Shown here: positions 5,564-32,000 of the stretch, one piece after another
How positions within the stretch are numbered: the first letter of the stretch is position 1
Layout: each line of letters opens with the position of its first letter
DNA from: Patescibacteria group bacterium
Lineage (GTDB): Bacteria; Patescibacteriota; WWE3; UBA101185; UBA10185
NCBI GenBank assembly: GCA_049322215.1
Contig: JBMORU010000001.1
Coordinates: forward strand, 324,023-388,022
DNA length: 64,000 nucleotides
Direction: 5' to 3'
Notes under the pieces: generated by a model
The model's database searches: none
What the model saw: only the letters and a program-made list of their open reading frames with translations
What the model was told of the DNA's origin: nothing
Position numbers and translations under genes: made by a program

Positions 5564-6481
5564 ATGACTCGAGATTATTACGAAGTGCTTGGAGTCGACA
5601 AAAAGGCTTCGGCAGAAGAAATAAAAAAAGCATATAGAAAACTTGCCCGCGAACATCATCCTGACATGGTAGCTGATCATGACAAAGATGGTGCAGAAGA
5701 ACGTTTTAAAGAAATAAATGAGGCATATCAGGTTTTAAGTGATCCTCAAAAGAAGCAAATGTACGATCAGTACGGACATGCTGGGTTTGGTGCGCAACAG
5801 AATGGTTTTGGTGGGAATCAGGGAGCACAAGGACAATGGGGTCCTTTTACATATACATACACCTCAGGGGGTAATAATGCTTACGGAAATATTGATCCTT
5901 TTGATGTGTTTGAAGAGTTTTTTGGTTTTAGGGGTTTTGGTGGTAATAGAAAGCCAAAGAGAGGTAAAAACCTTTATTATGAGTTTCATGTTACTTTTGG
6001 TGAAGCTGTTCACGGTGTAGAAAAAACTGTAGAAGTTGAAAGTGGCAAAGTAAAAATTAAAATACCTCAAGGTGTTAGAGATGGAAGTGAATTAAGATTT
6101 GCGGGTAAAGGAATGCCTGGTCCCGACGGACTTCCTTCAGGTGACTTGCTTTTAACTATAAGAGTTCCTACTCCAAGTGAATTTAGACGTGTTGGTGATA
6201 ACTTAGCCACTTTAGTAGAAATAGACTTTGTTCAAGCGATATTAGGCGATAAAGTAGAAATTCCCGTAGTAGACCTTGATTCGAAAACAGGCATAGGCAA
6301 AGTAAAGGTTAAAGTTCCTTCTGGAACACAGCCCGGCGCAACTATTCGCTTAAAAGGTAAGGGTATGCCTAAACTACATGGCTATGGTAGAGGTGATGTG
6401 TTAGTGCAGCTTTCAGTTGTTTTACCAAAAAAAATCAGTAGAAAACAAAAAAAGATTTTGGAAGATTACACAAAAGCCTAA
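5564..6481 (+). CDS. DnaJ-family co-chaperone lacking the CxxCxGxG zinc-finger domain (type II / CbpA-like architecture)
   Basis: J-domain with HPD (DYYEVLGV...EHHPD), a G/F-rich region and C-terminal DnaJ substrate-binding domains. No Cys repeats anywhere in 305 aa. Confidence 0.85.
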
Positions 6482-11252: not shown

Positions 11253-11957
11253 GTGGCTCAAAACTTTAAACCCACAAGTAATTCGTATTCCATGCCCAAT
11301 AAAGTTACTAATATGCAAGTAGATGACTTCAGTGTAGGTCAAATTTCTAAATTAATACAAGATGCAAAAGAGATTGCCGTTATACCTTCGGAAGGTTCTT
11401 CTATTGATGGTTTTTGTGCAGCTGTTGGTTTGTATCAAATGCTAAGGCGCAAAAAGAAGGATGTGCACTTTGTTTTTACTAAAAAACGACCTGAAGAAGC
11501 AAAAGACATAATCTCATTAGGGGAAATAACCTCTAACATTTCTCAGAGAGAACTTACAGTTAGTATTAACTATGCAAGTACAACTGCTGCAAAAGCTAAA
11601 TATTCTACAGAAAATGACGTACTAAAAGTTACTTTAGGTCCTGTTCCTAAAGAGTTTGATTTAAGTAATATTACATCAGAAATAACTGGCTACGATTTTG
11701 ATTTAGTATTTGTTTTGGGAGCAAAAAAGTTGGAAGATTTAAATGATATATATTCTTCATTAAAAGAAGAAATAAAAAAGGCAAAGGTTGTGAACGTAGA
11801 TATTTCTAAACATAATTCCCGTTACGGTACAGTGAATATTATAGATAACGAAGCCGATTCATTAAGCTTTTTAGTTTTTAATAAAGCGCCTTTATGGGCT
11901 TTAAAACCAGATAAAAAAGCAGCTAAATCTTTGCTAACAGGCTTATCTGTAGCCTAA
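11253..11957 (+). CDS. DHH-superfamily-like protein with degenerate catalytic motifs (NrnA-like N-terminal domain only, 234 aa)
   Basis: Resembles the NrnA/DHH N-domain layout (IAVIPSEGSSIDGFCAAVGLYQML ... VVNVDISKHNSRYGTVNIID ... LLTGLSVA), but DHH is replaced by SKH and no DHHA1 domain follows. Sits where rbfA/truB normally precede rpsO. Confidence 0.45.
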   Translation: MAQNFKPTSNSYSMPNKVTNMQVDDFSVGQISKLIQDAKEIAVIPSEGSSIDGFCAAVGLYQMLRRKKKDVHFVFTKKRPEEAKDIISLGEITSNISQRELTVSINYASTTAAKAKYSTENDVLKVTLGPVPKEFDLSNITSEITGYDFDLVFVLGAKKLEDLNDIYSSLKEEIKKAKVVNVDISKHNSRYGTVNIIDNEADSLSFLVFNKAPLWALKPDKKAAKSLLTGLSVA

Positions 11958-12415: not shown

Positions 12416-14620
12416 ATGAATAACAAAATAATAAAAAAAGAAATTGAGTTTGCCGGAAAAAAAATCACTCTTGAAACTGGTAAATTAGCTCCCATGTCAA
12501 ATTTGGCTGTAAAAGCAAGCTATGGTGACACTGTAATGCTTATCACAGCAAACTCTGGCGGGTATAACCCTGAGCTAGATTTTTTCCCATTAATGGTTAA
12601 TTACAATGAAAAGTTGTATGCAAGTGGAACTATTAAATCTTCTAGATTTGTAAAACGTGATGGACGTAGCACTGATGATGCTATTATTACAGGCCGTTTA
12701 TGCGATCATGCAATTCGTCCCTTGTTTCCTAGTGATTTCAGTGACGAAACACAAATTGTAGGTTCTGTAATGTCTTTGGAAGAAGATGCCGACGCAACAT
12801 TTTTATTTTTAAATGCTGTATCAGCTACTTTACAAGCTTCAACTATTCCTTGGAACGGCCCTATGCTTACAGCACGCGTTGGGTATATTAACAATGATTA
12901 CGTACTAAACCCAACAAGACATCAATTACATGATGAATCTACTTTGGATATGACTGTTTCATTTGTGGGTAAAGAAATGAAGTTTTTAGCTATAGAAGCT
13001 GAAGCTAATGTTTTACCTGAAAATGTTATTTTAGGCGCAATTGAGTTTGCAAGAAATGGCTTGAAACCTATTTATGACTTAATCGAAGACTTCGCTAAAG
13101 CAGTGAATCCTAAACATGAAAAGTTTGGGTACGAATCTGTAGCTTTAGAAGAAGACTTAACTAAAGATGTTCACGCTATTGCAAAAGAAAAAGTCATAAA
13201 ATTAATGCAGTCTGGTTTAGACAAGGTAGAAATGTCAACCAAACTAAGTGAACTTTTTGAAGAAGTTTACACTTCACTAGAAGGTAAATACAAAAAAGCT
13301 CGTATTGAAAAGGCTTTTTACGATATTGAAAAACACGCCTTACAACAAATGATTTTAGATCAAGGTAAACGCCCTGATGGTAGAGCTATAGACGAAGTTC
13401 GCCCCATAACCGTTGATATAGATGTTTTGCCTAGAGTACACGGTAGTGGTTTATTTACACGTGGTGTTACTCAAGTAATGACTATTGCAACTTTAGGTTC
13501 TCCATCGGATGAAATGTTGGTTCAAGATATGTACGGCGAAGTTTCTAAAAAATATATGCACTTTTACAACTTTCCTCCTTATGCAAGTGGTGAGATAGGA
13601 AGAGTAGGCGGTTTTCCTAAAAATAGAGAAATTGGTCATGGGATGCTTGCTGAGAAAGCACTAAAACCCGTATTGCCTGACACAAAAGATTTTCCTTACA
13701 CAATAGTATTGGTATCTGAAACATTATCATCAAGCGGTTCTACCTCTATGGCGGCTACTTGTGGTTCTACGTTGGCATTAATGGCTGCCGGTGTTCCTAT
13801 TAAAGATATGGTTGCCGGCATAGGAGTAGGTTTAATAGTTAACGACGATATGAGTAAACAGTTAATTATGACCGACTTAGCTTACATGGAAGATGCTTTT
13901 GGATTCTTAGACTTTAAAATGACTGGTACAAGAAATGGTGTTACTGCAATTCAGTGTGACATGAAAGCTGAAGGTATACCCATGGATTTACTTCCAAAAA
14001 TATTTGAGCAGTCAAAAGCTGGTAGATTACATGTTTTAGACAAAATGGAAGAAGTAATTAAGGAACCAAGAAAAGAAGTAAGTGAATATGCACCTAAATC
14101 AGCAATGACAAAAATTGATCCTGATAAAATTGGTATGGTAATTGGCCCAGGCGGAAAGGTAATTAAAGAGCTTCAGGAGCGTACTTCAACAGACATTTCT
14201 ATAGAAGAAGACGGTACAGTTGTTGCTACTGGTTTTTCACCCGAAGGTGTTGCAGAAGCCATAGCGCATATTGATGGAATGACTAAAGATGTTGAGGTTG
14301 GTGAAATTTACGATGGTGTAGTTAAAGAAATAGTAGACTTTGGTGCATTTGTTCAAATATTACCTGGTAAAGATGGCTTATTACATGTAAGTGAGATTTC
14401 TTCGGAATATGTTGATGATGTACGAAATGTGTTGTCTGAAGGACAAGAAGTACGTGTAAAAGTCATAAAAACTGAGGATGGAAAAGTAAGCTTGTCTAAA
14501 CGTGCTATTGATGACCCCGAAGGATATGAAAAGGCTGCTTCTAGGCCAAGTAACCGTGGTGGAAATAATAGAAGAGGTGGTCGCTTCAATGACAGAAAAG
14601 GACGTAACAACCGAAGATAA
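12416..14620 (+). CDS. pnp: Polyribonucleotide nucleotidyltransferase (PNPase) with a C-terminal RGG/RN-rich tail
   Basis: Two RNase PH domains plus KH (GMVIGPGGKVIKELQ) plus S1. 734 aa. Confidence 0.95.
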   Translation: MNNKIIKKEIEFAGKKITLETGKLAPMSNLAVKASYGDTVMLITANSGGYNPELDFFPLMVNYNEKLYASGTIKSSRFVKRDGRSTDDAIITGRLCDHAIRPLFPSDFSDETQIVGSVMSLEEDADATFLFLNAVSATLQASTIPWNGPMLTARVGYINNDYVLNPTRHQLHDESTLDMTVSFVGKEMKFLAIEAEANVLPENVILGAIEFARNGLKPIYDLIEDFAKAVNPKHEKFGYESVALEEDLTKDVHAIAKEKVIKLMQSGLDKVEMSTKLSELFEEVYTSLEGKYKKARIEKAFYDIEKHALQQMILDQGKRPDGRAIDEVRPITVDIDVLPRVHGSGLFTRGVTQVMTIATLGSPSDEMLVQDMYGEVSKKYMHFYNFPPYASGEIGRVGGFPKNREIGHGMLAEKALKPVLPDTKDFPYTIVLVSETLSSSGSTSMAATCGSTLALMAAGVPIKDMVAGIGVGLIVNDDMSKQLIMTDLAYMEDAFGFLDFKMTGTRNGVTAIQCDMKAEGIPMDLLPKIFEQSKAGRLHVLDKMEEVIKEPRKEVSEYAPKSAMTKIDPDKIGMVIGPGGKVIKELQERTSTDISIEEDGTVVATGFSPEGVAEAIAHIDGMTKDVEVGEIYDGVVKEIVDFGAFVQILPGKDGLLHVSEISSEYVDDVRNVLSEGQEVRVKVIKTEDGKVSLSKRAIDDPEGYEKAASRPSNRGGNNRRGGRFNDRKGRNNRR

Positions 14621-14686: not shown

Positions 14687-15607
14687 ATGTCTAGAGTTTG
14701 CTCTAACTGTAATTCTACTTTAGGTAATTACGATAGTTTTTTCTGTTCTGAGTGCGGAAATTTGTTGCCCGAAAATGTAGTGCGTATTGATCCTGGTTTA
14801 CGTACAAAGGTTTTTGAGCCCCAATATCAAAAAGTTGCAAGTAAACACTCAAATAACTTAAATAAAGTATTTAATAAATCTACTGTTAAACTATTTCTAA
14901 CACTACTTCCGTTATTTTTATTAGCCGTTGTTTTATACTTAGGCATTCCATTTATAAACGCTTTAATAAACACAAAAACCTTGTCTGTTGAATTAGTTGA
15001 ATTACCTACAAACCTTAGTGTTATAGAGGTAGAAAATGATTTACATGAGGATTTTTTTGGAGCTGATTTAATTGACTCGTATGTTCCGTTTGATGCTGAC
15101 TTATATGTTGAAATCAATGATTTACAAGGTGTACTAAATAGTTATGTGCAAGATACTTCTTTAGGTGATGACTTTTCTAAAGAGTTTTTATCTCAGGTCA
15201 GCGATCATTTTGCTATATTTGCTATAGTTGACGAAAGTAATGTTTCTTGGGGAGCTGTGTTTATACCAAATTCTCCTGATGAAATAGCAACATTAGTAAA
15301 CTCGGTAGAAAACTCAACATGGAAATTTAAACTAATTGGTAACAGATTAATTGTTGCAAACAATGATCAAATTTTTAACGAAGTTGAGGCTGTTAGCACT
15401 AAACTTAGTAGGAGCTTATCATTAAATCCTTCTTATGCTAGGGTTAAAGCAGTACTTCCAAAAAGCGGTAAGTCGCTGATTATGTTTGTTGGTGATGAGG
15501 GTTTTCAATCTCTTAATACTATAAATCCTAATAGCGTAACACCTGAAATGCTTGATATTATTAATTTGGTTGCAGAATCAAATCTGCAGGCAGTTGTTAT
15601 TAAATAA
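14687..15607 (+). CDS. Zinc-ribbon (CxxC...CxxC), single-TM protein with a large extracytoplasmic domain (306 aa)
   Basis: N-terminal CSNCNS...CSECGN ribbon, a TM helix at about aa 65-90, and a C-terminal domain rich in N-glyco-like NxS/T. The stop is 2 nt from the next ATG, suggesting a co-operonic pair with the Lon-like ATPase. Confidence 0.55.
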   Translation: MSRVCSNCNSTLGNYDSFFCSECGNLLPENVVRIDPGLRTKVFEPQYQKVASKHSNNLNKVFNKSTVKLFLTLLPLFLLAVVLYLGIPFINALINTKTLSVELVELPTNLSVIEVENDLHEDFFGADLIDSYVPFDADLYVEINDLQGVLNSYVQDTSLGDDFSKEFLSQVSDHFAIFAIVDESNVSWGAVFIPNSPDEIATLVNSVENSTWKFKLIGNRLIVANNDQIFNEVEAVSTKLSRSLSLNPSYARVKAVLPKSGKSLIMFVGDEGFQSLNTINPNSVTPEMLDIINLVAESNLQAVVIK

Positions 15608-15609
15608 TT

Positions 15610-16734
15610 ATGGTAGCAGAAAATACAATTTCATTAACAGATCAAGATAATACAAATTCAAAAGATGCTGAATTTATTTTTGACGAATTGGCACAAGTAG
15701 CAAAAAAAGTTGAACTATGTCCCGAGCTTCCACAAGATTTAAAAGAACGCGCAGACCAGTTTCTTAACAGATTAAACCGTATGGCACATACAGGTGTGTA
15801 TGGTGCCGAGTTTGATACCATTTCACACTATATTGATGTCATAACTTCTATTCCATGGAATAAATATACAGAAGACAATTTAGATTTAGCGAGAATGAAG
15901 CAACAGCTTGATGCAGGACATTATGGTATGGAAGGAGTTAAAAATCTTATTTTAGAATACATGGCAACCATGCGTTTGCTTAAAGAGCGAAGCGAAATTG
16001 GAGAAGCGCCACGTGCTCCAATACTGCTTTTAGTAGGATTGCAAGGTGTTGGTAAAACCACTATTGCTATTTCTTTAGCAAAGGCTATGGGTAGAGAGTA
16101 TGTTCGTATCGCTATGGGAGCTATCGGAAGTGTTTTGGAAATAAGGGGAAAAAGTAAGGCGTTACCAAGCGCCGAACCTGGTCAAATAATTAAGGGTTTA
16201 ATGAAAGCTAAAGTTATGAACCCACTTATACTTCTTGATGAAATTGAAAAAGCTAGCGGTCAAGAAGGAACGCGAAGTGATATTATGGCTTCTTTACTTG
16301 AAATTTTGGATCCTAGCCAAAATATTGCTTTCAGAGACCATTATGTTGATTACCCTGTTAATTTATCAAAAGCTATGTTTATGTGTACTGCAAACAACAC
16401 AGGCACTTTGTCTGCAGCACTAATGGACAGAATGCACGTTGTAAAAATGCCTTCATATACTGACGAAGAAAAAATTGTAATCTCTCGAGATTACTTGCTG
16501 CCAGGAATTTTGAAGAACAATGGTTTAAAACCAGAGGAGATGCAGATTGACCCAAATTTATGGCCCTCTATTGTTAGACCTTTTGGGTTTGACTCAGGAA
16601 TCAGAAGTTTGGGTAGGACGTTAGAGGCTATGTGTCGTAAAGTTGCAAAAGAACTTGTAGAGGGTAAACACACTGGGGTTTATATAACTGCTGAAAACCT
16701 TAAAAACTATTTGCCCGATACGAGTATAAGATAA
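15610..16734 (+). CDS. Stand-alone Lon-type AAA+ ATPase module with no protease domain and no Lon N-domain
   Basis: Collinear with E. coli Lon residues about 330-600. Matches include YIDVITSIPWN, DAGHYGMEGVKNLILEYMA, Walker A GLQGVGKTT, Walker B LILLDEIEK, LLEILDPSQNIAFRDHY, sensor TANN and LMDRMHVV. The ORF ends exactly where the Lon S-K protease domain would start. Confidence 0.7.
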   Translation: MVAENTISLTDQDNTNSKDAEFIFDELAQVAKKVELCPELPQDLKERADQFLNRLNRMAHTGVYGAEFDTISHYIDVITSIPWNKYTEDNLDLARMKQQLDAGHYGMEGVKNLILEYMATMRLLKERSEIGEAPRAPILLLVGLQGVGKTTIAISLAKAMGREYVRIAMGAIGSVLEIRGKSKALPSAEPGQIIKGLMKAKVMNPLILLDEIEKASGQEGTRSDIMASLLEILDPSQNIAFRDHYVDYPVNLSKAMFMCTANNTGTLSAALMDRMHVVKMPSYTDEEKIVISRDYLLPGILKNNGLKPEEMQIDPNLWPSIVRPFGFDSGIRSLGRTLEAMCRKVAKELVEGKHTGVYITAENLKNYLPDTSIR

Positions 16735-16739
16735 AAAAG

Positions 16740-17372
16740 ATGTCTACAAAAAAATCTACAAAAAGCAAAGGTTTAACCGCGCCTTTAAACGTGGTTTATG
16801 TTTTAGTTTTAGTACTTTTAGCTAGTTTGTTTGGAAATGCTTATCAATATGCTAAAAGTAATCACTTATATCGTTTTGCAGAAGATGCTGTAAACAGTAA
16901 TCCATTATTAACAGGCGTAAACCCAGCTAAACCGATACCAGGTAAACCCTGGACTTTAGTTGGTAAGAGTTTAGGTAGTAAAAAAGGTCAAGTGGTTTTT
17001 AAGCATGAAAACGAAACTATACCTGCAAAAGTAGAATTTTGGAGTGATGTTCAAATTCTTGTTAAAGTACCTGAAAATTTAAAAATTGACACTACTTATC
17101 TAGTAGAAGTGTCTACAGTAGAACAAAGAACAAATGGAGATACATTAACCTTTCCTATAATTTGGGAAAACGGTGGGGAGTATACAACAGATTCGGATCA
17201 CTATTTATACACAGTTCAAACAGGTGATTCTTTATATAAAATAGCCAGAGATGAATTAGGTAGTGAAGCACGCTTTGAAGAAATCATAGAATTGAATAGA
17301 GTAAGCTATCCTGGTTTGTCTCAATACAGCCCTTTGTCTTTAGGGATGGAACTAAAATTACCAAATGAATAA
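16740..17372 (+). CDS. Membrane-anchored protein with a C-terminal LysM domain
   Basis: N-terminal TM helix and a C-terminal LysM-like segment (YTVQTGDSLYKIARDELGSEARFEEIIELN). The last 8 nt overlap the next gene. Confidence 0.6.
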   Translation: MSTKKSTKSKGLTAPLNVVYVLVLVLLASLFGNAYQYAKSNHLYRFAEDAVNSNPLLTGVNPAKPIPGKPWTLVGKSLGSKKGQVVFKHENETIPAKVEFWSDVQILVKVPENLKIDTTYLVEVSTVEQRTNGDTLTFPIIWENGGEYTTDSDHYLYTVQTGDSLYKIARDELGSEARFEEIIELNRVSYPGLSQYSPLSLGMELKLPNE

Positions 17373-18009
17373 AAAAGCTTTAATTGCTCAAGTAGAAGCC
17401 AATGTTAAAAACTGTTCAAAATGCCGTTTATGTGAAACGGCATTAAATGCTGTTCCTGGGGAAGGGAATATAAATTCAAAAATTGTTTTTATTGGAGAAG
17501 CTCCTGGAGCAACAGAAGACAAAACAGGTCGTCCTTTTGTTGGGCGTGCCGGAAATTTATTGGAAACATTATTAAATGAAATAGGTTATAAAAGAGAGGA
17601 TGTTTGGATTGGTAATATAATAAAACACCGTCCTCCCAATAATAGAGACCCCTTACCTGACGAAATTAAAGCATGTGAAGGTTATTTGGCAATGCAGTTA
17701 AAGGCTATAGATCCGTGGGTGGTTGTTACCTTGGGTAGATTTTCTATGAACTATTTTTACAAAGATGGAAAAATAACTAAAGATCACGGTCATCCGAGGA
17801 AAATAGGTGATTTAGTTTTATATCCTGTTTATCATCCTGCAGCTGCTCTACGCAATAAAAGTTTTGCAGATGCTTTAAGAAAAGACTTTAAAAGAATACC
17901 TAAGCTTATGGAGTATCTTAATAAGAATGGTTTTGGGAAAAGATCTAGTGATAAAACTCCCACCTCGGTAAGTGAAACCATTGATGGGCAATTAGGTTTA
18001 AGTTTTTAA
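17365..18009 (+). CDS. Uracil-DNA glycosylase, family 4 (Fe-S type)
   Basis: CSKCRLCE...GEGN...IVFIGEAPGATED..GRPFVGRAG...HP are UDG family 4 motifs. Confidence 0.8.
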   Translation: MNKKALIAQVEANVKNCSKCRLCETALNAVPGEGNINSKIVFIGEAPGATEDKTGRPFVGRAGNLLETLLNEIGYKREDVWIGNIIKHRPPNNRDPLPDEIKACEGYLAMQLKAIDPWVVVTLGRFSMNYFYKDGKITKDHGHPRKIGDLVLYPVYHPAAALRNKSFADALRKDFKRIPKLMEYLNKNGFGKRSSDKTPTSVSETIDGQLGLSF

Positions 18010-18010
18010 A

Positions 18011-18532
18011 ATGACTTCCATTAACTTAGATAAACTTAATGATTTGCGTAAACAGGGCTTTAGGCCTGTGGTTGTTGCAGCTATAGTGAAAAATTACAAA
18101 ATACTTATGTTTTATCATAAAAAATACTCAGTTTGGATGTTACCACAAGGGGGTATAAGCAGTGGAGAATTACCGCAAGAGGCATTACAAAGAGAACTTT
18201 CGGAAGAAATAAACTATACTTTTGTTGAAAATTTAAGATTTCCAGCAAAGCTTTTCCACGAACACAGATTAAAATTTCCACGCCACCAGCATGGCTCTCG
18301 TACCTTATTTGATGACTCTGGCGTTTATTATGAAATGAAAGGTAAGCACTATTTATTTCATGTTTTAGAGGCTATAGCACCTGTAAATACCCTAGCGGAA
18401 GAATTTGATGATGCCGCGTGGTTAGGCTATGAAAATGCACGTAATCTAGTGTTAGAGATGCCTCAAAAAAATAAAAAAGACATTATTTTAAAACTACTTG
18501 ATATGCTAGTTTCTGCAAACTATATAAAATAA
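18011..18532 (+). CDS. Nudix hydrolase
   Basis: Nudix box GGISSGELPQEALQRELSEEIN (Gx5Ex7REUxEExGU). Confidence 0.75.
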   Translation: MTSINLDKLNDLRKQGFRPVVVAAIVKNYKILMFYHKKYSVWMLPQGGISSGELPQEALQRELSEEINYTFVENLRFPAKLFHEHRLKFPRHQHGSRTLFDDSGVYYEMKGKHYLFHVLEAIAPVNTLAEEFDDAAWLGYENARNLVLEMPQKNKKDIILKLLDMLVSANYIK

Positions 18533-18594: not shown

Positions 18595-20304
18595 TTGGAG
18601 CATTTGATGTTTAGTATTGCAAAAAAGAAACCGGAATTAAAAATAATTAAGTTAGGTGCAGAAGTTGGCGCAACTAAAAACTTAACCGTATATGAATGTG
18701 GTGACGATATTATTATGGTTGATTACGGTATAGGATTCCCTGACTCAGACTTACCTGGAGTTGATGTTGTTATACCTGATTACACTTATTTAATAGATAA
18801 TCAGGAAAAGATACGTGGTTTGATTATAACACATGGGCATGAAGATCACTTCGGCGCAGTTCCATACTTATTAGAAGAAATAAACGTTCCCATTTATTGT
18901 AGCGATTTGGTTGAAGGTTTTATTAGAAAAAGAATTGAAGATCGAACCAAGGGGGATGTTTCTGGAGTAAGTTTTCACAGGCTTGCTGCGAATGAACCCG
19001 ATATAGTATTGGGTAACTTTTCAATAAGCGCTTTCAAGGTTAATCACTCCGTTCCAGGCTCGCTAGGCATTGTAATACGCACACCACAAGGAACTATTTT
19101 ACATATGGCTGATTATAAAGTTGATTGGTCGCCTGTTTTAGATGATCCCATCGATTTAGGGCGCATTGCCGAATTAGGTGATGAGGGTGTTTTGTGTTTA
19201 TTATCCGACTGTTTAGGTGTTACTCATGAGGGTTATTCGGCTTCAGAAAAATCCCTTGCGGCCACTTACGACAGAATAATTGGCAACGCTGAAGGAAAAG
19301 GAATATTTATTACTACTATTTCTTCAAACATTTCCAGAATGCATCAAGTTATTGAAATAGCTATAAAGCATGGAAGAAAAATAGTTTTTGATGGAAGGTC
19401 AATTAAACAAAGTGCAGAAGTAGCAATAGCCTTAGGTTACTTTCCTTTTGCTGAAGATATATATGTGGATATAAAACATACTGACCAATACCGACGTGAC
19501 GAACTATTATTTATAGTTGCAGGTTGTTATGGTCAACCAAATTCAGCCCTTTACAAACTTGCCCATAACGAGCACAAATATTTAAGTTTAGTTGATAACG
19601 ATTTGGTAATATTTTCTGCTGACCCTGGTCCACCAAGCTCATATGAGCCAGTAGAAAACATACTACACTTTTTAACTGTTGCAGGGGCAGAAGTTATTTA
19701 TAGTGCTATTCAAGAAAATCTTCATGTTTCTGGGCACGGGATGCGTGGTGATTTGCAACTTGTTGCCGCCACTGCACGTGCAAAATTTCACATACCAATT
19801 GGCGGTACTGCTGCCAAAATGCGTGCGTACACACATATGATTGAAGAGTTAGGGCACGATGCTGAAACTGTTTTTGAATTATTAGAAGGCGAAACCGTAG
19901 TTTTTAATGACGGTTATGCTGAAAGATCAAAACCAGTGCCTGTACGCCAAATTTACGTAGATGGTCAAAGTGTTGGAGAAATAGGAAACGTAGTAATAAA
20001 AGACCGTGAAAAACTATCTGACGAAGGTTTATTTGTTGCCGTGGTTCCAATAACCGAAGACGACTCAGGTTTTCAGGTGGCGGGTAAAGTACAAGCTATA
20101 ACCCGAGGATTTGTTTATGTAAAAGAATCAAAAGCACTAATTGGACGTGCTCGTGACATAGTTTATAAAACAATAGATAAAAACACTTCTAGTGTAACTA
20201 CCTGGCAGGCCATGAAACCTTTAATTGAAAAAGATTTGGCTAAGTTTTTGTATGCAGAAACAGGTAGAAGACCCTTAGTAGTAATATCCGAAGTGCGAAT
20301 ATAA
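18595..20304 (+). CDS. rnj: Ribonuclease J (metallo-beta-lactamase/beta-CASP RNase)
   Basis: HGHEDH motif plus beta-CASP and a C-terminal domain; RNase J-like N-terminus (KIIKLGAEVGATKNLTVYECGDDIIMVDYG). Confidence 0.85.
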   Translation: MEHLMFSIAKKKPELKIIKLGAEVGATKNLTVYECGDDIIMVDYGIGFPDSDLPGVDVVIPDYTYLIDNQEKIRGLIITHGHEDHFGAVPYLLEEINVPIYCSDLVEGFIRKRIEDRTKGDVSGVSFHRLAANEPDIVLGNFSISAFKVNHSVPGSLGIVIRTPQGTILHMADYKVDWSPVLDDPIDLGRIAELGDEGVLCLLSDCLGVTHEGYSASEKSLAATYDRIIGNAEGKGIFITTISSNISRMHQVIEIAIKHGRKIVFDGRSIKQSAEVAIALGYFPFAEDIYVDIKHTDQYRRDELLFIVAGCYGQPNSALYKLAHNEHKYLSLVDNDLVIFSADPGPPSSYEPVENILHFLTVAGAEVIYSAIQENLHVSGHGMRGDLQLVAATARAKFHIPIGGTAAKMRAYTHMIEELGHDAETVFELLEGETVVFNDGYAERSKPVPVRQIYVDGQSVGEIGNVVIKDREKLSDEGLFVAVVPITEDDSGFQVAGKVQAITRGFVYVKESKALIGRARDIVYKTIDKNTSSVTTWQAMKPLIEKDLAKFLYAETGRRPLVVISEVRI

Positions 20305-20398: not shown

Positions 20399-22669
20399 AT
20401 GGCACGAAGAGGAAGAAAGAAAGCAATCAAATTAAAAATGAAGCCAGATACGGCTAAATCTATCCTGTCTATTATTTTAATTGTTACAGGAGGGTTAGTG
20501 CTAGTATCTTTTATTACTCCTGACTACGCAATAAATTCTGTAATTCAAAAAGGCATTCGCGGTTTATTTGGCATAACTTCTATATTTTTAACCCCAGTTT
20601 TAATTGTTTGGGGTCTAATTTATATTCCATCAATAAAGTGGAAGTTTGCAGAACTACGTGTTTTATTTGGCTTATTGGCCTTACTAATTGGATCAAGCGG
20701 TTTGGTGCATACATTTTATAGTAGAGAGGACGCTAAGAGCATAGCCCAAGACGGTTTAGGTGGTGGTTTTGTTGGATACTTAATATCTAAGGTTTTAATA
20801 AATACGCTTAGTATATACGGGGCTGTTTTAATTTTATTAGCCTTTTTAGTAGTTACTCTTATATTTATCTGGGATAAGCCTTTAGATGAATTAATGTCCC
20901 GTTTACCTTCAAACTTGGGTTTTTTGAATAAGCTTAAGTTTAAGCGCAAAGCTAAACTTTCTGGTGAAATGGCAGAAGATGCGCATCAAGACGAAATTAA
21001 AATAAGCACTGGCGTGGCAGAAAGCGCTGTAGAAGTAAACTCTCACCCTGAAGAGGCTAAAAAACCAGCTAAAAAAGTCGTAGAAGAACCTTCTTTTGAA
21101 GTAATTCCTTCAATGGCAGAACCGCAGGCAGGTCTTGTAGTTCCTCAGCTTCCAACGGGTACTGAAGGTATAGCGCTTACTCCAAATTTGCCTTATAGCG
21201 ATAGAATTTGGGAACCACCTCCACTAGACATACTAAACCCACCATCAAATGCACCAGTTGACAGAGGAGATGTAAAAGCACGTGCCAAAATAATTGAAGA
21301 TACTTTAAGGTCATTTGGAATAGAGATTTCTGTAAAAGAAATAAATTATGGGCCTTCTGTAACTCAATACGCTCTTGAAACTCCTTCTGGAACAAAAATA
21401 GCTAAAATATCTAATTTACAATATGATTTGGCATTAGCATTAGCTTCACCTACAGGATCAGTACGTATAGAAGCTCCTATTCCTGGAAGATCTCTAATTG
21501 GTATCGAAGTTCCTAATAATAATCGTTTAGTAGTCAATTTTAAAGAAATTCTTACGTCTGATGCTATGAAGGGAAATAAAGCTCCTTTAGGTATTGTGCT
21601 AGGAAAAGATGTAAGCGGAGCTTCTAAAGTTTACGATATAGCAAAAATGCCTCACCTACTTGTTGCAGGAGCTACAGGTTCTGGTAAATCTATATTTTTG
21701 CAAAGCATAATGTTTTCTCTATTATTTAAAAAAGGGCCTGATGAAGTTAAATTCATACTGGTAGACCCCAAAAGGGTTGAATTAGTTTATTACCAGGATA
21801 TTCCCCATTTGTTAACTCCAGTCGTAACAGATAGTGAAAAGGCTCCTTCTGTTTTTGGTTGGTTAGTAGATGAAATGGAACGTCGATACAAGTTGCTAGA
21901 AGCAGCTAGAGTGAGAAATATTGTTGGATATAATGAAAAATCGGGTTTTCAGGCTATGCCTTACATTGTAGTTATAGTTGACGAAATGGCTGAAATAATG
22001 GTTAGAGACCCTGCTGCTGTAGAAAAAAACATCATTAGACTTGCGCAGTTATCTCGTGCAACGGGAATTCATTTAATCTTGACAGTACAGAGACCCTCTA
22101 CAAATATTATTACTGGTTTAATTAAAGCAAATATACCTTGTCGTGCTGCTTTTAATGTTACTAGCCAGGTAGACTCTAGAGTTATTATTGACCAGCCTGG
22201 TGCGGAAAAACTTTTGGGTAAAGGAGACATGCTTTTTGTTCCACCTGATGCATCTAAGCCGGTTCGTTTACAAGGGTCTTTTATAGACGAAAAAGAAATC
22301 AATCAATTAGTGTCTTATTTAAAAAGCACTGGAATGCCTCCTTCTTATAATGCGGAAATTTTATCAAAGCCGCCTATTGATACAAATAAAAGTATTTCTG
22401 CCGGGGGAGACGCAACTGATGATTTGTTTGATGATGCCGTAGAAGTGGTTGTTACTGCAGGTAAAGCGTCTGCATCTTTGTTGCAAAGACGTTTATCTAT
22501 TGGGTATGCTAGAGCTGCCCGTATTTTAGATGAACTAGAAGCTAAGGGAGTTATTGGACCTGCAAGAGGCAGCAAACCAAGAGATGTTTTAATGAGTGAT
22601 ACCTCTGCAACCGATCCATTAAGTGATACACTTGACACCGAGATTGAAGATCTTACTTTTGACTCATAA
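20399..22669 (+). CDS. ftsK: DNA translocase FtsK/SpoIIIE
   Basis: N-terminal TM helices, a linker, a motor domain (GATGSGKS, VVIVDEMAEIM) and a C-terminal gamma (winged-helix) domain. Confidence 0.85.
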   Translation: MARRGRKKAIKLKMKPDTAKSILSIILIVTGGLVLVSFITPDYAINSVIQKGIRGLFGITSIFLTPVLIVWGLIYIPSIKWKFAELRVLFGLLALLIGSSGLVHTFYSREDAKSIAQDGLGGGFVGYLISKVLINTLSIYGAVLILLAFLVVTLIFIWDKPLDELMSRLPSNLGFLNKLKFKRKAKLSGEMAEDAHQDEIKISTGVAESAVEVNSHPEEAKKPAKKVVEEPSFEVIPSMAEPQAGLVVPQLPTGTEGIALTPNLPYSDRIWEPPPLDILNPPSNAPVDRGDVKARAKIIEDTLRSFGIEISVKEINYGPSVTQYALETPSGTKIAKISNLQYDLALALASPTGSVRIEAPIPGRSLIGIEVPNNNRLVVNFKEILTSDAMKGNKAPLGIVLGKDVSGASKVYDIAKMPHLLVAGATGSGKSIFLQSIMFSLLFKKGPDEVKFILVDPKRVELVYYQDIPHLLTPVVTDSEKAPSVFGWLVDEMERRYKLLEAARVRNIVGYNEKSGFQAMPYIVVIVDEMAEIMVRDPAAVEKNIIRLAQLSRATGIHLILTVQRPSTNIITGLIKANIPCRAAFNVTSQVDSRVIIDQPGAEKLLGKGDMLFVPPDASKPVRLQGSFIDEKEINQLVSYLKSTGMPPSYNAEILSKPPIDTNKSISAGGDATDDLFDDAVEVVVTAGKASASLLQRRLSIGYARAARILDELEAKGVIGPARGSKPRDVLMSDTSATDPLSDTLDTEIEDLTFDS

Positions 22670-25673: not shown

Positions 25674-26582
25674 ATGCAGGACTTGCCCACAGATAACACA
25701 AACAATAATAATTCTGGTAGTCAGCACCCAAACCCATTTTATATTGATGATAGTACAGAAATTGATTTAAACTCTACCCAAGAGCAAGTATCTACGCTTA
25801 AACATGAAAGTGCTGTTGAACCTACTCCACCGACTGTTGCAGAACCTGTGCCTTCCCCTGATCCTACTTACATAAATCCTCAACCCGTTGTTGTTGCCGA
25901 GCCAGTACCTTCGGCACCTATACCTGCAGTACCTATACCCGTGCCCGAACCTGTTATACCAGAACCCTTGCCATCAGTGCCTTCCCCACCTGAGGTTTCT
26001 GCAATGCCCAGTATTTCAAGTACTACTATAGAAAATTCTGCCCCCAATGATTTTACACAAGAGAATGTTCCCGAGTGGATGCAAGTGCAACCAATAGCAG
26101 ATAGTAATATGCCTTCTCCCGATGAAGAAGAGGGTTTACTTGAGGACGGAAATCCGTTTGCTGAACCCTCAGATACCGCTGTGTCTCAGCCACCTGTTAC
26201 GCCTCAAACCCCTATAGTATCTAGCACTACAAGTGGAGGTTTAGAAGGAGTTGGAAGTGAAAGCTTAAGTTCATTTGCACCTGTTGAATCAGTACCTGAA
26301 GCTCTACCAAGCGAACTTGCCCCCGAGGTTTTGAGTACGTCTGAATCTGCAGAGTTTCAAACTCCGGCACCCGCAGCACCAACACCAGCCATGCCTCAGC
26401 AAGCGCCTGAAAATATTGTTCCTCAACAAATGCAAGCTTCTGATTTACAAGGGCATTTAATAGATAAAAGAACCTCCCATGAGCAGCTACACGAGGTTTC
26501 TAGCGTAGATCCTACTACCAAGTGGGCTGACGAAGAAGAGGAAGAGTTTATAGTTGGGGTAGAAGAAGCCCATAAACACTAA
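25674..26582 (+). CDS. Proline-rich, acidic, predicted intrinsically disordered protein (302 aa)
   Basis: Low-complexity PxPxP/EPVP repeats, no TM helix, acidic C-terminus (DEEEEEF). The stop codon overlaps the ATG of the downstream ATPase (TAATG). Confidence 0.55.
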   Translation: MQDLPTDNTNNNNSGSQHPNPFYIDDSTEIDLNSTQEQVSTLKHESAVEPTPPTVAEPVPSPDPTYINPQPVVVAEPVPSAPIPAVPIPVPEPVIPEPLPSVPSPPEVSAMPSISSTTIENSAPNDFTQENVPEWMQVQPIADSNMPSPDEEEGLLEDGNPFAEPSDTAVSQPPVTPQTPIVSSTTSGGLEGVGSESLSSFAPVESVPEALPSELAPEVLSTSESAEFQTPAPAAPTPAMPQQAPENIVPQQMQASDLQGHLIDKRTSHEQLHEVSSVDPTTKWADEEEEEFIVGVEEAHKH

Positions 26583-29008
26583 TGCAAGATATAACCACAA
26601 TATTCACGCTTTTGATAATAATAATTATTGTAGTTGGCGTTATAGCAGGTATTGTTACTTTTTTACTAAATAAAAAGCGCCGCCAATTAGAACAAAGCGA
26701 TCAATATAAATTAACTTTTTTACAGGTAAAGGTGCCTCCTAGTGATGAAAGCGAAATAAAGGTAGCAGAAAGTTTATTTTCTAGCTTAATGGGTATTTCG
26801 TCTAGTAATGCCTCATGGTTATTAAAGGGACATAGTCGTGTGTCTTTCGAAATTGTATCTAATACAGAAGGCATAAGCTTTTATGTTGTTGCCCCAGATG
26901 ATATTGCCGTGCTCGTTGAAAAACAAATAAACGGAGCTTATCCCGATGCTGAAATAGACATTATAGATCCCCAAGAAGTATGGGATAGAGGTGAGTATAC
27001 TTCAGTAGCCGAGTTAAGACTAAGTGGGCCTCACTACTATCCAATAAAAACTTATGAATCTCTAGGGAGCGATTCGTTAAGTGGCATTACTACAGCCATG
27101 AGTAAGTTAAAGCCCGATGAAGTGTTAGCCTTACAAGTAATTATAAAACCAGCCGGGGACTTTTGGCGTGACAGAGGTAGCCAATATATTTACGATGTGA
27201 AAAACAAAGCATCTGCAACAGAAAATTCAGCACCGGTAGACCAAAATTTAGTTCAAGGCATAGAAAAGAAAATATCTAAACCTGGTTTTTACACAACTAT
27301 ACGTGTAATTTCTATAGCCAAAGATCGTTTTTCTGCAGAAAGTAATGTTACAAACTTAACTAATGCGTTCGAGCAATTCACGGACCCCACATTTAATAGG
27401 TTAACACGCAAAAGTGTGAAAACAGCAATTTTTATTGATGACTTTATATACAGACGTCCTAATTTCACGGACATTCGCATACCTGGTTTAGGTTGGCAGA
27501 TCAAAAGAAACACATCGGTATTAAACATTGAAGAATTGGCAACTATATTTCATTTTCCAAACAAAAATGTTAAAACACCAAGCATTAATTGGCTGCGTGC
27601 GCGTAAATCTTCGGCGCCCATTAATTTACCTACTGATGGCTTATATTTAGGACAAAGTTTATTCAGAGGTGTTTCTACAGATGTTTACATTAAAGATAAA
27701 GACCGTAGGCGCCATATGTATATAATTGGACAAACAGGTACAGGTAAATCTGAGTTTTTAAAGGGTATGGCTTTACAAGATATTGTGAACGGTGAGGGGC
27801 TTGCAATAATAGATCCACACGGTAGTGCTGTAGATGACATAATGCAAAAAATCCCAAGAGAACGGGCTGAAGATGTTGTTTTGTTTAATGCTTCAGATAC
27901 CGAAATGCCTATTGGTTTAAATGTTCTTGAGTGGAAAGACGAGCGCGAAAAAAACATTATTATTAACGCTTTTATTGGCTTGCTAAAAAAACTTTATGAT
28001 CCTAATAATCAAGGTGTTGTGGGGCCAAAACTTGAACGTGCCGTTAGAAACGTAATGTTAACCGCAATGTATGATAAAGACTCCACTTTAATAGATGTGT
28101 TGCGCTTACTAATTGATTCTGAATATTCAAAGAAGTTTTTTCCTTTAATTAAAGATCCTCTTGTAATGCGTTACTGGACAGATGAAGTAGCAAAAACAAG
28201 TGATTTTCATAAAAGTGAAACCATGGGATATTTTGTTTCTAAGTTTGACAGATTTATTACCGAAAGATCTATGCGAAATATGTTAGGCCAACCACATTCG
28301 TCACTTGACTTTGAATACATTATGGAAAACAAAAAGATTTTATTGGTCGACCTTTCTAAAGGTAAAATAGGTGAGGAAAATTCAACTTTCTTGGGATTAA
28401 TTATCGTTCCACGTATATTAACTGCCGCCTTAAAAAGAGCACAGGTGTTGGCAGAAGGGGGAGATTTTCCTGATTTTTACTTATATGTTGATGAGTTTCA
28501 AAACTTTGCAACTCCTGATTTTGCCACAATTTTGTCGGAAGCACGAAAATATAAACTAGACTTGATAGTTGCTAACCAATTCATAGGGCAACTAACCGAA
28601 GGAATAAAAGATGCAATATTTGGTAATGTAGGTACTTTGGTATCTTTTCGAGTGGGTATTGATGACGCAGATTATTTGGAAAAGCAGTTTGAGCCTACAT
28701 TTATGTCAAATGACTTATTAAATAATGCCATGGGTAACTGCTATATGCGTTTGCTTATCGATGGACATCCCTCAGAACCGTTTTCAATGCGTGTAGATTG
28801 GGATGCAGATCGAGATGATATTTCTACAAAATATGTAAACATTGATAAAAATATTGAAATGGCAAGATATATTCGTCAGCTATCAAGGCAAAAATACGGA
28901 AAGTACTTTGCAGATGTTGAAGCATTTATTCAAAAGCGGGCTGGTTTTGATACACCTCCTCAAATGCCAGAACCTCCCAAACCCAAAAGGCGACGCCCTG
29001 CATTTTAG
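26582..29008 (+). CDS. TrwB/TraD/VirD4-family (type IV coupling protein-like) P-loop ATPase with one N-terminal TM helix and a roughly 350-aa extra N-domain
   Basis: Collinear with TrwB motifs: HMYIIGQTGTGKSEFLKGMALQDIVNGEGLAIIDPHGS resembles HLLVNGATGTGKSVLLRELAYTGLLRGDRMVIVDPNGD. Walker B region FYLYVDEFQNFATPDFATILSEARKYKLDLIVANQFIGQL resembles LWLFIDELASLEKLASLADALTKGRKAGLRVVAGLQSTSQL. Recalled from memory, no alignment run. Confidence 0.7.
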   Translation: MQDITTIFTLLIIIIIVVGVIAGIVTFLLNKKRRQLEQSDQYKLTFLQVKVPPSDESEIKVAESLFSSLMGISSSNASWLLKGHSRVSFEIVSNTEGISFYVVAPDDIAVLVEKQINGAYPDAEIDIIDPQEVWDRGEYTSVAELRLSGPHYYPIKTYESLGSDSLSGITTAMSKLKPDEVLALQVIIKPAGDFWRDRGSQYIYDVKNKASATENSAPVDQNLVQGIEKKISKPGFYTTIRVISIAKDRFSAESNVTNLTNAFEQFTDPTFNRLTRKSVKTAIFIDDFIYRRPNFTDIRIPGLGWQIKRNTSVLNIEELATIFHFPNKNVKTPSINWLRARKSSAPINLPTDGLYLGQSLFRGVSTDVYIKDKDRRRHMYIIGQTGTGKSEFLKGMALQDIVNGEGLAIIDPHGSAVDDIMQKIPRERAEDVVLFNASDTEMPIGLNVLEWKDEREKNIIINAFIGLLKKLYDPNNQGVVGPKLERAVRNVMLTAMYDKDSTLIDVLRLLIDSEYSKKFFPLIKDPLVMRYWTDEVAKTSDFHKSETMGYFVSKFDRFITERSMRNMLGQPHSSLDFEYIMENKKILLVDLSKGKIGEENSTFLGLIIVPRILTAALKRAQVLAEGGDFPDFYLYVDEFQNFATPDFATILSEARKYKLDLIVANQFIGQLTEGIKDAIFGNVGTLVSFRVGIDDADYLEKQFEPTFMSNDLLNNAMGNCYMRLLIDGHPSEPFSMRVDWDADRDDISTKYVNIDKNIEMARYIRQLSRQKYGKYFADVEAFIQKRAGFDTPPQMPEPPKPKRRRPAF

Positions 29009-29049: not shown

Positions 29050-32000
29050 ATGCCTGCAGATGTTATTGAAGCACAAGATAAACAAGACGTATTTGAAAAA
29101 GCCCATAATATTGAATCTGAAAACGAACCCGAAGGTCGTGCCTCTAGAGCTACTTCTAGAGCAATAGAGTTTGGTGAACGTGCTATAGAGGGCATGAATA
29201 GAGATGAAAAAAGACACCATCAGGAGATACTAAACTCCTTTAAAGAGCGTGTTCAAAACCTCAACCCTGATCAACAACCGCCTGACTCTCCTGATAACCA
29301 AGCCTATCATGATCTTCCAAATGAAATTAACGATTATTTGTTTGAACAATGGCAGTTAGGTATAGTTGAAGGGCTTAATTTAATTACCGATCAGGCTGAC
29401 GCCGCCTTACAAAATCCAGATGTTAGAGAAGCAGTATTTCAAGTAATGAATGTGATAGCTGAAAATGGGATTGATTTAGATGATGATGATTTAGAATTAA
29501 GTGATAGGTTAACTCCTATTGTTACCGCTGCGAATCAGTATGTGGAAAATCACTTTATTTCTTTTAATGATTTTGTAGAAAGGCATAACTTAAGAGAATA
29601 TGATGAAAACACAGAACTAGATGAAGTTTATGATTTTCGTGCAGAACAAACTGACTCGCGAGAGGCTGATGTTCAAACTTTAAGTGCTGCTTTAGAAGAA
29701 ATTATTCCCGACCCTAACGCCGAAATAGATAGATCCCCCACCATGGAAATGGGTGATACTACCTGGGGACATTTTGTTCCTAACAGGGAGGCATGGAACA
29801 ATACATTTTTTAATGATTCTAGCGAAGTACTATCTGCGGTAGTTTCTGAAGAATTACGAGATAGAAAGGGAGAAATTCCAAAAGATTTACGTCCTTCCCA
29901 ACATGTCAGTTTAGTAAGTGGTTATACTAGAAGAAAGGGCGACAACGCAATTGTACAAGCGCCAATTTTAAGCATTAATATTAAAAAAACAGAGTTACAG
30001 GTACCACATAACGAAGTTGTAACAGATATAAGAAAATTACGTCCCGACCACCCCACTGTAATGAATCGTCGTATTACTAACCCAGGAGCTTTATATGAAT
30101 GGGAACAACAACTAATGAACGCAGTTATAGAAGAGAATGAGTTTAAAAAGCCAGATGAAAGGCGTGTTCGCTTTGTAACAACTAGTGTAGATAAACAAAT
30201 GAAACCCGTAAATAAACTATTAGAAGTCAGTTATGAAGATTACAATCAAATGGTGCGTGCAACTCAAAGTGCTAGAGCTCAGTATGAACGTGTAGGTATA
30301 AAAGTGGAAAAAGATCCTGAGGCTGAGAAAGAAACTTTAACTGAGTTTGGTAAAAGTTTAAATCGTGCTGAGTATTTAAAAACAAGAGAAAGAATGGCGT
30401 CGTATTTAGATGCAGAAATTTCACGTTTACGTGAAGAGGGCAATGATTATTTGGCAGATCAAATGGAATCTTCTAAAGATAGTTTGGTATATATGTATCA
30501 AGAACTTTCAATTCATTATGATAGTGATGCCTACCATAACGCCGCTGCAAAAGAAAACTTACGCAGTCGACTAGAAGGTGATGATTCAATAGCAGAGGGT
30601 AGCGACGAATGGAATACTATGCTTACCGATGAGATTGCTCAATTACGCTTAGAATATTCTTATAAAGCTGTTGTATATAAAGATCATGCAGAATATTTAG
30701 GCTCTCAAATTGATATGTTGCTAGAAAGTGGAGATCGTGCAAGTGCTCAAGCAATGCTGTTAAACTTGGACAAATTAATAGAAATAGAAGCAAGAGCTTA
30801 TTACTTGACCGATGTTCAAGATATAGTAGAAAATCCTGAAACCTCTACAGACGAAGACCCTGATTATTTACCTTTGAAGTCGGTAGATGAGTTTAGGCAA
30901 GAAATGTACGCTTTATCCGAAGGATTTTTACGTAAAGGCACAAACAAAGAAGCTGAGCTAGTTACAATAGGTGCTGAGATGCAAGAAGAGTGGGGAGAAG
31001 CAATTAGTTTATGGCAACAATTAGATGAAACTTTTGGTGATGAGTTGCATAACCTAAGTTTATTCGAATTAGAGGTTTTAGCTGTATTAGAGGATAAGCA
31101 CTTATTAGGCGCAAGAGTAGAGGCTTTGCAACCAAGTGAAGCAGACATACATACCAGCGACTTTTTGGAAACGCAGTTTAAAGGAATGTTTGGTAGAGAA
31201 CCAACTGAGGAGGAGTGGTATTTTGTAACTTTACAAATGATGCGTCAGCAGTATGACGATAATTTAGCTTCTACTACACACCTAAACGGTGGTATAGAAA
31301 GCTTGATGACTTATGTTTCAAATAACTACAATCAAAACTCTTTAGTAGAGCGCTCGAATAATGGGCTTTTTGAGCATGCTCGTTACTTATTAGATGTTAA
31401 TGAGGTATCTCATTTAGAAGCTGAAAGATTAAGATTGCAAACACAAGCAGGATTAGCTGCAGAAAATGAAGATTTAGAAAGAAAAGATCAAATCAGAGAA
31501 TATATGCAAAAACGCGCACGTGATCGTCAAGAGCATAACGCCGCTGTTCGAAAAATGAATGAGCAGGTTGAACTAAATAACAGAGAACGTAAGAATCAAG
31601 AAGAATTAAGAAAAGCTAATGCTGAATTGTTAAAGAAAAGAAATGAAGCGCGGGATCGCCAACAGCAAGAAATTATAGATCAGGAAGCAAAAGCAAAATT
31701 ACGTGAATCAGAGTCACTTGCTCGTGAGGTGGCAAAGGAAAATTCCGCCGCTTTAGATAATTCTGAGCAAATTGCCGAAGCTCGGGCTGTGCTTCGCGCT
31801 GCTGAAGAGAGGGCTCGTGCCGTAGCAGAAGAAAATGCACAAGGGGTGGATAATTCTGAACAAGTAGCTGCAGCTCAAGAAGAATTACGTGCTGCTGAAG
31901 ACCATGTTCGTGAAATAGCAGAAGAAAATGCAGCTGCAGAATCGGAGCTAAATAATTTACCTGAAGACATAGTTGATGAGGTAGAGCAAGTTACAGAAAT

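Follow-up and report, generated by a model that had tools for sequence, protein, structure and literature searches.

Lon is the textbook AAA+ motor permanently fused to a protease. What, then, is to be made of an intact bacterial gene that encodes the motor alone? This question is raised by a 64-kb stretch of contig JBMORU010000001.1 from a Patescibacteria group bacterium (hereafter the window, that is, the whole stretch of DNA that was analysed), in which an open reading frame (ORF) of 374 amino acids (aa) lies between the genes of a zinc-ribbon membrane protein, here called ZnTM, and of a LysM protein. The original prediction read this ORF as the ATPase module of LonA cut off at the AAA+/protease boundary, and explained it either as a decayed lon or as a neo-functionalised unfoldase working with its zinc-ribbon neighbour. 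We find that the protein belongs to a stand-alone, conserved LonA-derived AAA+ family of the Candidate Phyla Radiation (CPR), and that it is functional rather than a decayed lon, because the family as a whole is conserved, its ATPase residues are invariant and no remnant of the Lon protease domain (Lon_C) occurs in any frame. The second half of the proposed alternative therefore stands insofar as it describes a functional, neo-functionalised module, and falls insofar as it describes a three-gene unit with ZnTM and the LysM protein. Our preferred reading of what the module does has, in our estimate, a probability of roughly 0.55: a Lon-like ring would spend ATP on remodelling or unfolding client proteins and would not degrade them, and ZnTM would be a candidate adaptor, tether or client in the clade of this genome.

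The motor of LonA and nothing else

The window protein consists of the three-helix bundle, the AAA+ module and the lid of LonA, and of nothing else. A disordered N-terminal tail (residues 1-16) leads into the three-helix bundle (approximately 25-127), the alpha/beta part of the AAA+ module (approximately 135-300) and the Lon lid. Pfam assigned AAA (PF00004, E 2e-17) and Lon_lid (PF22667, E 2e-11), and the TIGR00763 model 'lon' covers the protein at model positions 253-570 of 795 only (E 1e-95). The best phmmer matches among PDB sequences were the Lon proteins of B. subtilis, Yersinia, E. coli, Meiothermus and human (E 1e-74 to 1e-63). B. subtilis Lon (3m6a) aligns to residues 26-368 (E 2e-74), and the end of this alignment is the start of the protease domain. 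Together with the span of the TIGR00763 match, this places the end of the protein at the AAA+/protease boundary, as had been predicted. At the other end, approximately 25 poorly conserved, disordered residues are all that precede the Lon-homologous region. An AlphaFold2 model of the monomer, built from 20 family sequences, had a predicted local distance difference test (pLDDT) score of 86.6, with residues 1-16 predicted to be disordered. This model superposed on an engineered AAA+ fragment of E. coli Lon (6n2i) with a template modelling score of 0.91 and a root-mean-square deviation of 2.4 A, and it also matched LONP1 and Lon subunits (E approximately 1e-30).

The catalytic positions K149, D210/E211, N262, R274 and R332 are kept in the query as in 218/218 family sequences. 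All residues for ATP binding and hydrolysis in a ring, including the trans-acting arginine finger, are thereby in place. With LonA (endopeptidase La, MEROPS S16, TIGR00763; 3m6a, 6n2i/6u5z and human LONP1) the ATPase shares 37-42% identity, and it has in common with LonA the three-helix bundle, the AAA+ module, the lid, Walker A and B, sensor-1, the arginine finger and sensor-2. YIDVITSIPWN and LLEILDPSQNIAFRDHY, the two Lon-type motifs quoted in the original prediction, are both present in the translation. Unlike LonA, the ATPase has neither the N-terminal substrate-binding domain nor the Ser-Lys protease domain, and its Walker A motif reads GLQGVGKTT against GPPGVGKTS in canonical Lon. Its scores lie under the curated cut-offs for Lon equivalogs (322 against 608 bits for TIGR00763, 251 against 891 for NF008053). 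A protein that has neither protease domain nor N-domain, scores below the curated cut-off and is also without the pore-loop tyrosine described below should not be filed as a Lon protease. Public annotations list the family as 'AAA family ATPase' or, wrongly, as 'ATP-dependent Lon protease' (JGI), and NCBIfam and Pfam hold no curated family specific for the protease-less ATPase. No paper on a protease-less Lon in the CPR was found in open-access full text, where absence is no proof.

Search for the missing protease

Pfam detected neither Lon_C (PF05362), whose absence had been foreseen, nor the LON N-domain (PF02190) in the ATPase. For the surrounding DNA, the window was compared with 84 related loci, which comprise approximately 1 Mb in total with accessible flanks of at most approximately 7-10 kb per locus, and whose called ORFs were labelled by phmmer with the window proteins. 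If the gene were one piece of a frameshifted lon, a Lon protease domain should be encoded downstream in another frame, as the original prediction had itself pointed out. Nine canonical Lon proteins, whose N- and C-terminal parts were searched by tblastn against all frames of the window and the 84 loci, gave nothing below E 0.3. This empty result in six frames rules out a frameshifted or split lon nearby.

A peptidase could also be encoded at a distance. Under such an arrangement a stand-alone Lon_C/S16 protein, ClpP or HslV would dock onto the ATPase in trans, as in ClpXP or HslUV. The protein ends at the exact AAA+/protease junction, an aromatic pore-loop residue is kept in most close relatives, separate ATPase and peptidase pairs are usual in the same AAA+ clade (ClpX, HslU), and some CPR genomes have ClpP, for example SEML1_0493 of the cultivated Saccharibacterium Southlakia epibionticum, all of which would fit a Lon split in this way. 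Against it, the tblastn search showed no Lon_C-like sequence in any frame of the window or within approximately 7 kb on either side in the 84 loci, and no ClpP, HslV or S16 was present among the window ORFs scanned with Pfam (approximately seven smaller ORFs of 125-236 aa lay outside the scan). Many Microgenomates members have no aromatic pore-loop residue at all. The C-terminus, which in 181/218 family members ends 1-2 residues past a conserved YLP, offers no recognisable docking tail. In S. epibionticum the sole Lon_C-like match is YifB/ComM, and there is no other Lon-type protein (supplement of a CPR transposon sequencing study, PMC10633639). We consider a peptidase acting in trans to be unlikely.

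ClpX and HslU are likewise encoded by separate ATPase genes without a fused peptidase. The window ATPase differs from them in that it has no recognised ClpP-docking IGF loop or HslV-docking C-terminal tail, in that its sequence is clearly Lon-type, and in that no partner peptidase was found near it. In ClpX, an N-terminal C4 zinc-binding domain serves adaptor and substrate recognition; in the clade of the window, it is the neighbouring gene that contributes a C4 zinc ribbon. A second comparison is offered by LonC of Meiothermus taiwanensis, which has kept its protease and lost its ATPase activity, and for which chaperone-like activity has been reported (PMC3391209, PMC13069640). LonC resembles the window family as a Lon-family member that has lost one of two coupled activities and has been retained as a functional protein, but it is the mirror image, since the window family keeps the ATPase and the protease is gone.

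Spread and conservation of the family

A homologue search of 5.8 billion clustered proteins returned approximately 2000 matches. The best 120 are all 352-422 aa long, contain no domain besides AAA and Lon_lid, and share 62-71% identity with the query; the sources named among them are WWE3, Saccharimonadales and Patescibacteria. When one genome per GTDB species was scanned, at least 590 Patescibacteria genomes carried a stand-alone orthologue of 350-420 aa, and the best 80 of these belonged to WWE3, Saccharibacteria, Dojkabacteria, Nomurabacteria and Microgenomates, the last represented by Woese-, Levy-, Gottesman-, Shapiro- and Daviesbacteria. The statement in the original prediction that protease-less Lon modules are rare is wrong for this lineage.

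In a neighbour-joining tree of Lon AAA+ modules from 50%-identity representatives, a set of 25 protease-less proteins, the query among them, formed one clade, apart from 85 canonical LonA proteins; the tree is a rough one, since the method is distance-based and gives no support values. The nearest relatives of this clade in the tree are tandem Lon proteins, in which two or three complete Lon AAA+ and lid modules precede a single Lon_C domain, and some of these are its sister. Tandem Lon proteins share the Lon AAA+ and lid modules with the window family but retain the S16 protease domain and measure 890-1400 aa or longer. Of the top 150 representatives at 50% identity, 30 are of this kind (P0122-P0128, P0131-P0133, P0138-P0146 and others; locus L085:5001-7670). 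One of them, P0144 (889 aa), is encoded on a 494-kb contig amid resolvase/transposase genes, outside any housekeeping array.

How strongly is the stand-alone gene conserved? Median identity to the window orthologue, taken over the same loci, was 47% for the ATPase, compared with 43% for PNPase, 41% for IF-2 (infB), 45% for FtsK, 36% for RNase J and 54% for S15. By this sequence measure, purifying selection acts on the ATPase no less strongly than on PNPase, IF-2 or FtsK. The argument of the original prediction, that an intact ORF with conserved ATPase residues speaks for function, is upheld both by this parity and by the invariance of the catalytic residues. That a full-length Lon has decayed here into a pseudogene remnant, or looks shortened through an assembly or frameshift error, is supported solely by the truncated architecture relative to LonA, but the same architecture recurs in the at least 590 species, the selection is strong and the catalytic residues are invariant, no remnant of Lon_C or the N-domain exists in any frame of the window and the 84 loci, and a protein identical to the window ATPase occurs on two independent assemblies. 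The chance that the gene is decayed is practically negligible.

Some family members carry longer termini, in which no fused zinc ribbon, transmembrane (TM) segment or other domain pointing to a partner was found. The protease-less proteins P0130, P0142, P0152, P0157 and P0171 have N-terminal, and P0149 and P0150 C-terminal, extensions of 90-330 aa that are rich in P, Q, S and T; that of P0157 comprises approximately 328 aa of Q/P repeats. These low-complexity extensions are probably disordered tails on the ATPase ring.

Among cultivated representatives, S. epibionticum appears to be without the ATPase gene (PMC10633639 supplement), and its slot between pnp and RNase J (SEML1_0093-0096) holds a non-essential 296-aa hypothetical membrane protein with DUF4064, described as 'IpaD-like' (PMC10633639).

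A relaxed pore loop

Canonical LonA holds its substrate by the tyrosine of pore-loop-1, GHRRTY(I/V)GAMPG. This tyrosine was present in 85/85 canonical full-length LonA representatives. In the window ATPase the loop reads GKSKALPSAEPG, with Leu185 at the tyrosine position, a replacement that the original prediction did not mention. The loop of the family follows the pattern G(K/R)SK.(F/L/Y/H/S)PEAEPG, in which the tyrosine is not conserved: the residue at its position (n=218) is F in 97 members, L in 34, Y in 25, H in 20 and S in 11, with others in the remainder. Some aromatic residue is present in the pore loop of 129/218 members (59%) and none in 89/218, and among the many Microgenomates loops that have none are RGVPRHEMDSEPG and RGQSRVRPDAEIG. 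In the closest clade, Phe or Tyr is retained by most members. The flanks of the loop, RG...EPGQIIKA, are near-invariant across the family. As aligned, the family combines an absolute constraint on the residues for ATP hydrolysis with variation in the classical translocation paddle. Constrained ATPase residues next to a freely varying pore-loop tyrosine are the pattern that would be expected if processive threading into a protease chamber had been abandoned.

Gene order at the locus

The ORF list, the translation and the junctions agree with the original description of three closely packed genes on the + strand (Table 1). Read directly from the sequence, the junction from ZnTM to the ATPase is TAA-tt-ATG, a gap of 2 nt, and that from the ATPase to the LysM gene is TAA-aaaag-ATG, a gap of 5 nt. 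The array extends beyond the three genes, which the description had left out. Dense packing goes on past the LysM gene, which is overlapped by 8 nt by a uracil-DNA glycosylase (UDG) gene; a NUDIX gene begins 1 nt after UDG, the RNase J gene follows 62 nt past NUDIX and is itself followed by ftsK, and upstream of the ZnTM gene lie rpsO and pnp. The window as a whole is a low-GC (approximately 36%) housekeeping stretch with hrcA-grpE-dnaK-dnaJ, nusA, infB, rpsO, pnp, rnj and ftsK, and further with alaS, an ftsA-like gene, miaA, a miaB-like gene and mltG. Promoter and terminator scans of the window gave no operon-boundary signal above shuffled expectation, and Rfam reported no family at gathering score anywhere in it.

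A role of the ATPase as a defence-system protein was rejected. The PADLOC matches to the ATPase were no more than weak and generic to AAA proteins (DolB the best, E 3e-6, 25 bits), ZnTM and the LysM protein had none, and the genomic context of the ATPase is housekeeping, not defence.

Table 1. Genes around the ATPase and landmarks within it (window coordinates; residue numbers refer to the ATPase).
Feature	Position	Strand	Remarks
pnp (PNPase), rpsO before pnp	12416..14620	+	widespread upstream neighbour of the ATPase family
zinc-ribbon/TM protein (ZnTM), 306 aa	14687..15607	+	clade-specific neighbour; stop 2 nt before ATPase start
stand-alone LonA-derived AAA+ ATPase, 374 aa	15610..16734	+	Pfam, TIGR00763, phmmer, AlphaFold2
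Walker A GLQGVGKTT, residues 143-151	16036..16062	+	K149 in 218/218 family sequences
pore-loop-1 region RGKSKALPSAEPG, residues 179-191	16144..16182	+	Leu185; canonical LonA has an invariant Tyr, GHRRTYVGAMPG
Walker B LILLDE, residues 206-211	16225..16242	+	D210 and E211 invariant
sensor-1 N262 to arginine finger R274 (CTANN...LMDRM)	16393..16431	+	both in 218/218
Lon-type lid PF22667, residues 302-354	16513..16671	+	holds invariant sensor-2 R332
N-terminal TM and C-terminal LysM protein, 210 aa	16740..17372	+	Pfam, topology
UDG (family-4-type)	17365-18009	+	
NUDIX	18011-18532	+	
RNase J (rnj)	18595-20304	+	
ftsK	20399-22669	+	

ZnTM and the LysM protein as possible partners

ZnTM consists of a zinc ribbon with invariant C5/C8/C20/C23, a linker, one TM segment (approximately residues 64-96) and an extracytoplasmic domain of approximately 200 aa, for which only a low-confidence model was obtained and no match to a solved fold was found. 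By the positive-inside rule, the N-terminus and the ribbon are predicted to be cytoplasmic. The LysM protein has one N-terminal TM segment and a C-terminal LysM domain (E 8e-6).

If the three genes formed a functional unit, they should co-occur in relatives, as the original prediction had anticipated. Among the 74 of the 84 loci that could be judged for neighbour counts, this was not the case. The LysM gene stands beside the ATPase in 1/74 loci, namely in the source genome only, and because its adjacency is limited in this way we treat it as an incidental insertion or bystander, outside any conserved system. ZnTM lies directly upstream of the ATPase in 9/74 loci, all of them from the closest clade (ATPase identity 61-66%), with a gap of -8 to +15 nt in 8/9. 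Within the same clade it is missing beside the ATPase in three loci (L002, L005 and L013). A hidden Markov model search for ZnTM upstream of the ATPase in other clades (Microgenomates, Dojkabacteria and others) came back empty; what lies upstream in those clades is L25-like, SufS-like, Met-tRNA-synthetase-like or unknown. ZnTM is a true but fast-evolving family, whose members share 21-30% identity where the ATPases of the same genomes share 61-66%, and a profile search found 12 database homologues of it in all.

These counts bear on the idea of a membrane machine in which ZnTM would serve the ATPase as its obligate anchor or adaptor and the LysM protein would be a third component. The 2-nt and 5-nt junctions are real, in nine closest-clade loci ZnTM is syntenic and closely coupled, its invariant zinc ribbon is predicted to face the cytoplasm, and for an ATPase that has no N-domain of its own an adaptor in trans is plausible. 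However, ZnTM is not beside the ATPase in the three exceptional loci of that clade, nor in any of the Microgenomates, Dojkabacteria or other loci. Its rate of evolution does not match that of the supposed partner (approximately 25% identity where the ATPase has 61-66%). The homologues in the databases number only the 12 found, the LysM adjacency is unique to the source genome, and the family has produced no fusion to a zinc ribbon or TM segment, its N-terminal extensions being disordered and of low complexity. An obligate membrane machine is therefore rather improbable in our estimate.

The wider setting and a possible role in nucleic-acid metabolism

The widespread context of the family is rpsO-pnp-[ATPase]-(UDG/NUDIX)-RNase J-FtsK. 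In 49/74 loci pnp lies at most three genes upstream of the ATPase, and in 50/74 RNase J lies at most four genes downstream, the gap to rnj often being 1-25 nt in Microgenomates. In Dojkabacteria and in several loci labelled as Saccharibacteria the ATPase occurs in unrelated contexts, for example with rplY or sufS-like genes.

Taken at face value, this placement would fit an ATPase that works with PNPase, RNase J, UDG and FtsK, for example as an ATP-driven remodeller of a degradosome-like assembly. LonA binds DNA, and the depositors of 6n2i name their molecule 'DNA-binding ATP-dependent protease La', which points in the same direction. Against such a role, the order pnp...rnj-ftsK is kept without the ATPase in S. 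epibionticum, and it resembles the ancestral order pnpA...rnjB...spoIIIE of Bacillus subtilis. The persistence of the order without the ATPase, together with its Bacillus-like layout, means that the synteny may be inherited and not functional. The unrelated contexts in Dojkabacteria and some Saccharibacteria loci also speak against it, and Pfam detected no nucleic-acid-binding domain in the ATPase. We regard a nucleic-acid role as a rather doubtful alternative.

Two further observations concern this gene order. The CPR-type array rpsO-pnp-LonAAA-RNase J-FtsK is present in many third-party annotation (TPA) records of metagenome-assembled genomes whose titles read 'uncultured Gammaproteobacteria', 'Pseudomonadales' or 'Candidatus Methanoperedens' (the loci concerned include L029, L033, L040, L041, L043, L045, L054, L057, L059, L061 and L083), and these organisms are probably mislabelled. 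Many bacteria have rbfA/truB between infB and rpsO. In the window (11253-11957, +) this slot holds a protein with only a weak, sub-threshold DHH match (E 9e-5), of a kind approximately 220-245 aa long and fast-evolving (approximately 25% identity) that is found in the same slot in at least 27 related loci.

A proposed motor for remodelling without degradation

The preferred reading, an ATP-driven remodelling ring without proteolysis, can be spelled out as follows. The window ATPase and its family descend from LonA and have kept only the three-helix bundle, the AAA+ module and the lid. The protein would assemble as a Lon-like hexamer, and this hexamer would remodel, unfold or release client proteins and leave them undegraded, serving as a chaperone-only Lon for very small genomes. 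Clients might be recognised through the three-helix bundle, through the variable disordered N-terminal tail or through separate adaptors. In the source clade, the translationally coupled ZnTM would be the best candidate for an adaptor, a membrane tether or a client, and not an obligate partner of the family.

Several points weigh against this account. The strong conservation and the constant placement between pnp and rnj could mean a role related to nucleic acids. A peptidase partner could be encoded elsewhere in the 1.11-Mb genome, the peptidase search having covered the 64-kb window. The Phe or Tyr kept in most of the closest clade means that classical threading and gripping may persist in many lineages. 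Finally, the apparent absence of the gene from S. epibionticum suggests that the ATPase is not universally required in the CPR.

A bolder version combines several of these elements. In a large part of the CPR, Lon would have turned into an indispensable protease-less ATPase with a relaxed pore loop that no longer threads substrates for degradation, and would serve as the remodelling subunit of a CPR-specific assembly for RNA decay or ribonucleoprotein quality control between PNPase and RNase J, recruited to the membrane in one clade by a zinc-ribbon anchor. We offer this version as a long shot.

Whichever function applies, the family constitutes a natural experiment on the Lon motor without proteolysis. 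A chaperone activity has been proposed for Lon and argued from protease-dead mutants, and this proposal could be tested on a family that is protease-less by nature. A whole bacterial radiation keeps the motor alone, conserved like genes of translation and RNA decay, while the substrate-gripping tyrosine drifts. To CPR-specific biology this adds an unannotated core gene. For specialists in AAA+ proteins and in the CPR, a protease-less Lon with a relaxed pore loop is a testable curiosity whose function is so far inferred.

Other features of the window

Three further regions of the window are recorded here. The DnaJ of the hrcA-grpE-dnaK-dnaJ cluster (5564-6481, +) contains a J-domain and the DnaJ C-terminal domain only; the CXXCXGXG zinc-finger domain gave no match, which suggests a class-B DnaJ. 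Two adjacent ORFs of 808 and 1174 aa (26582-29008 and 29050-32574, both +) have no Pfam match at E<=1e-5. The precomputed annotation of the 808-aa ORF lists DUF8128 and, faintly, DUF87 and TraG-D_C, and this ORF may be a secretion- or conjugation-type ATPase beside a giant unknown protein. The very small genome also encodes a large secreted glycoside hydrolase, a protein of 1187 aa (50023-53586, +) that combines a GH5 cellulase/apiosidase-like catalytic domain with CBM6/CBM35 and CBM13-like modules.

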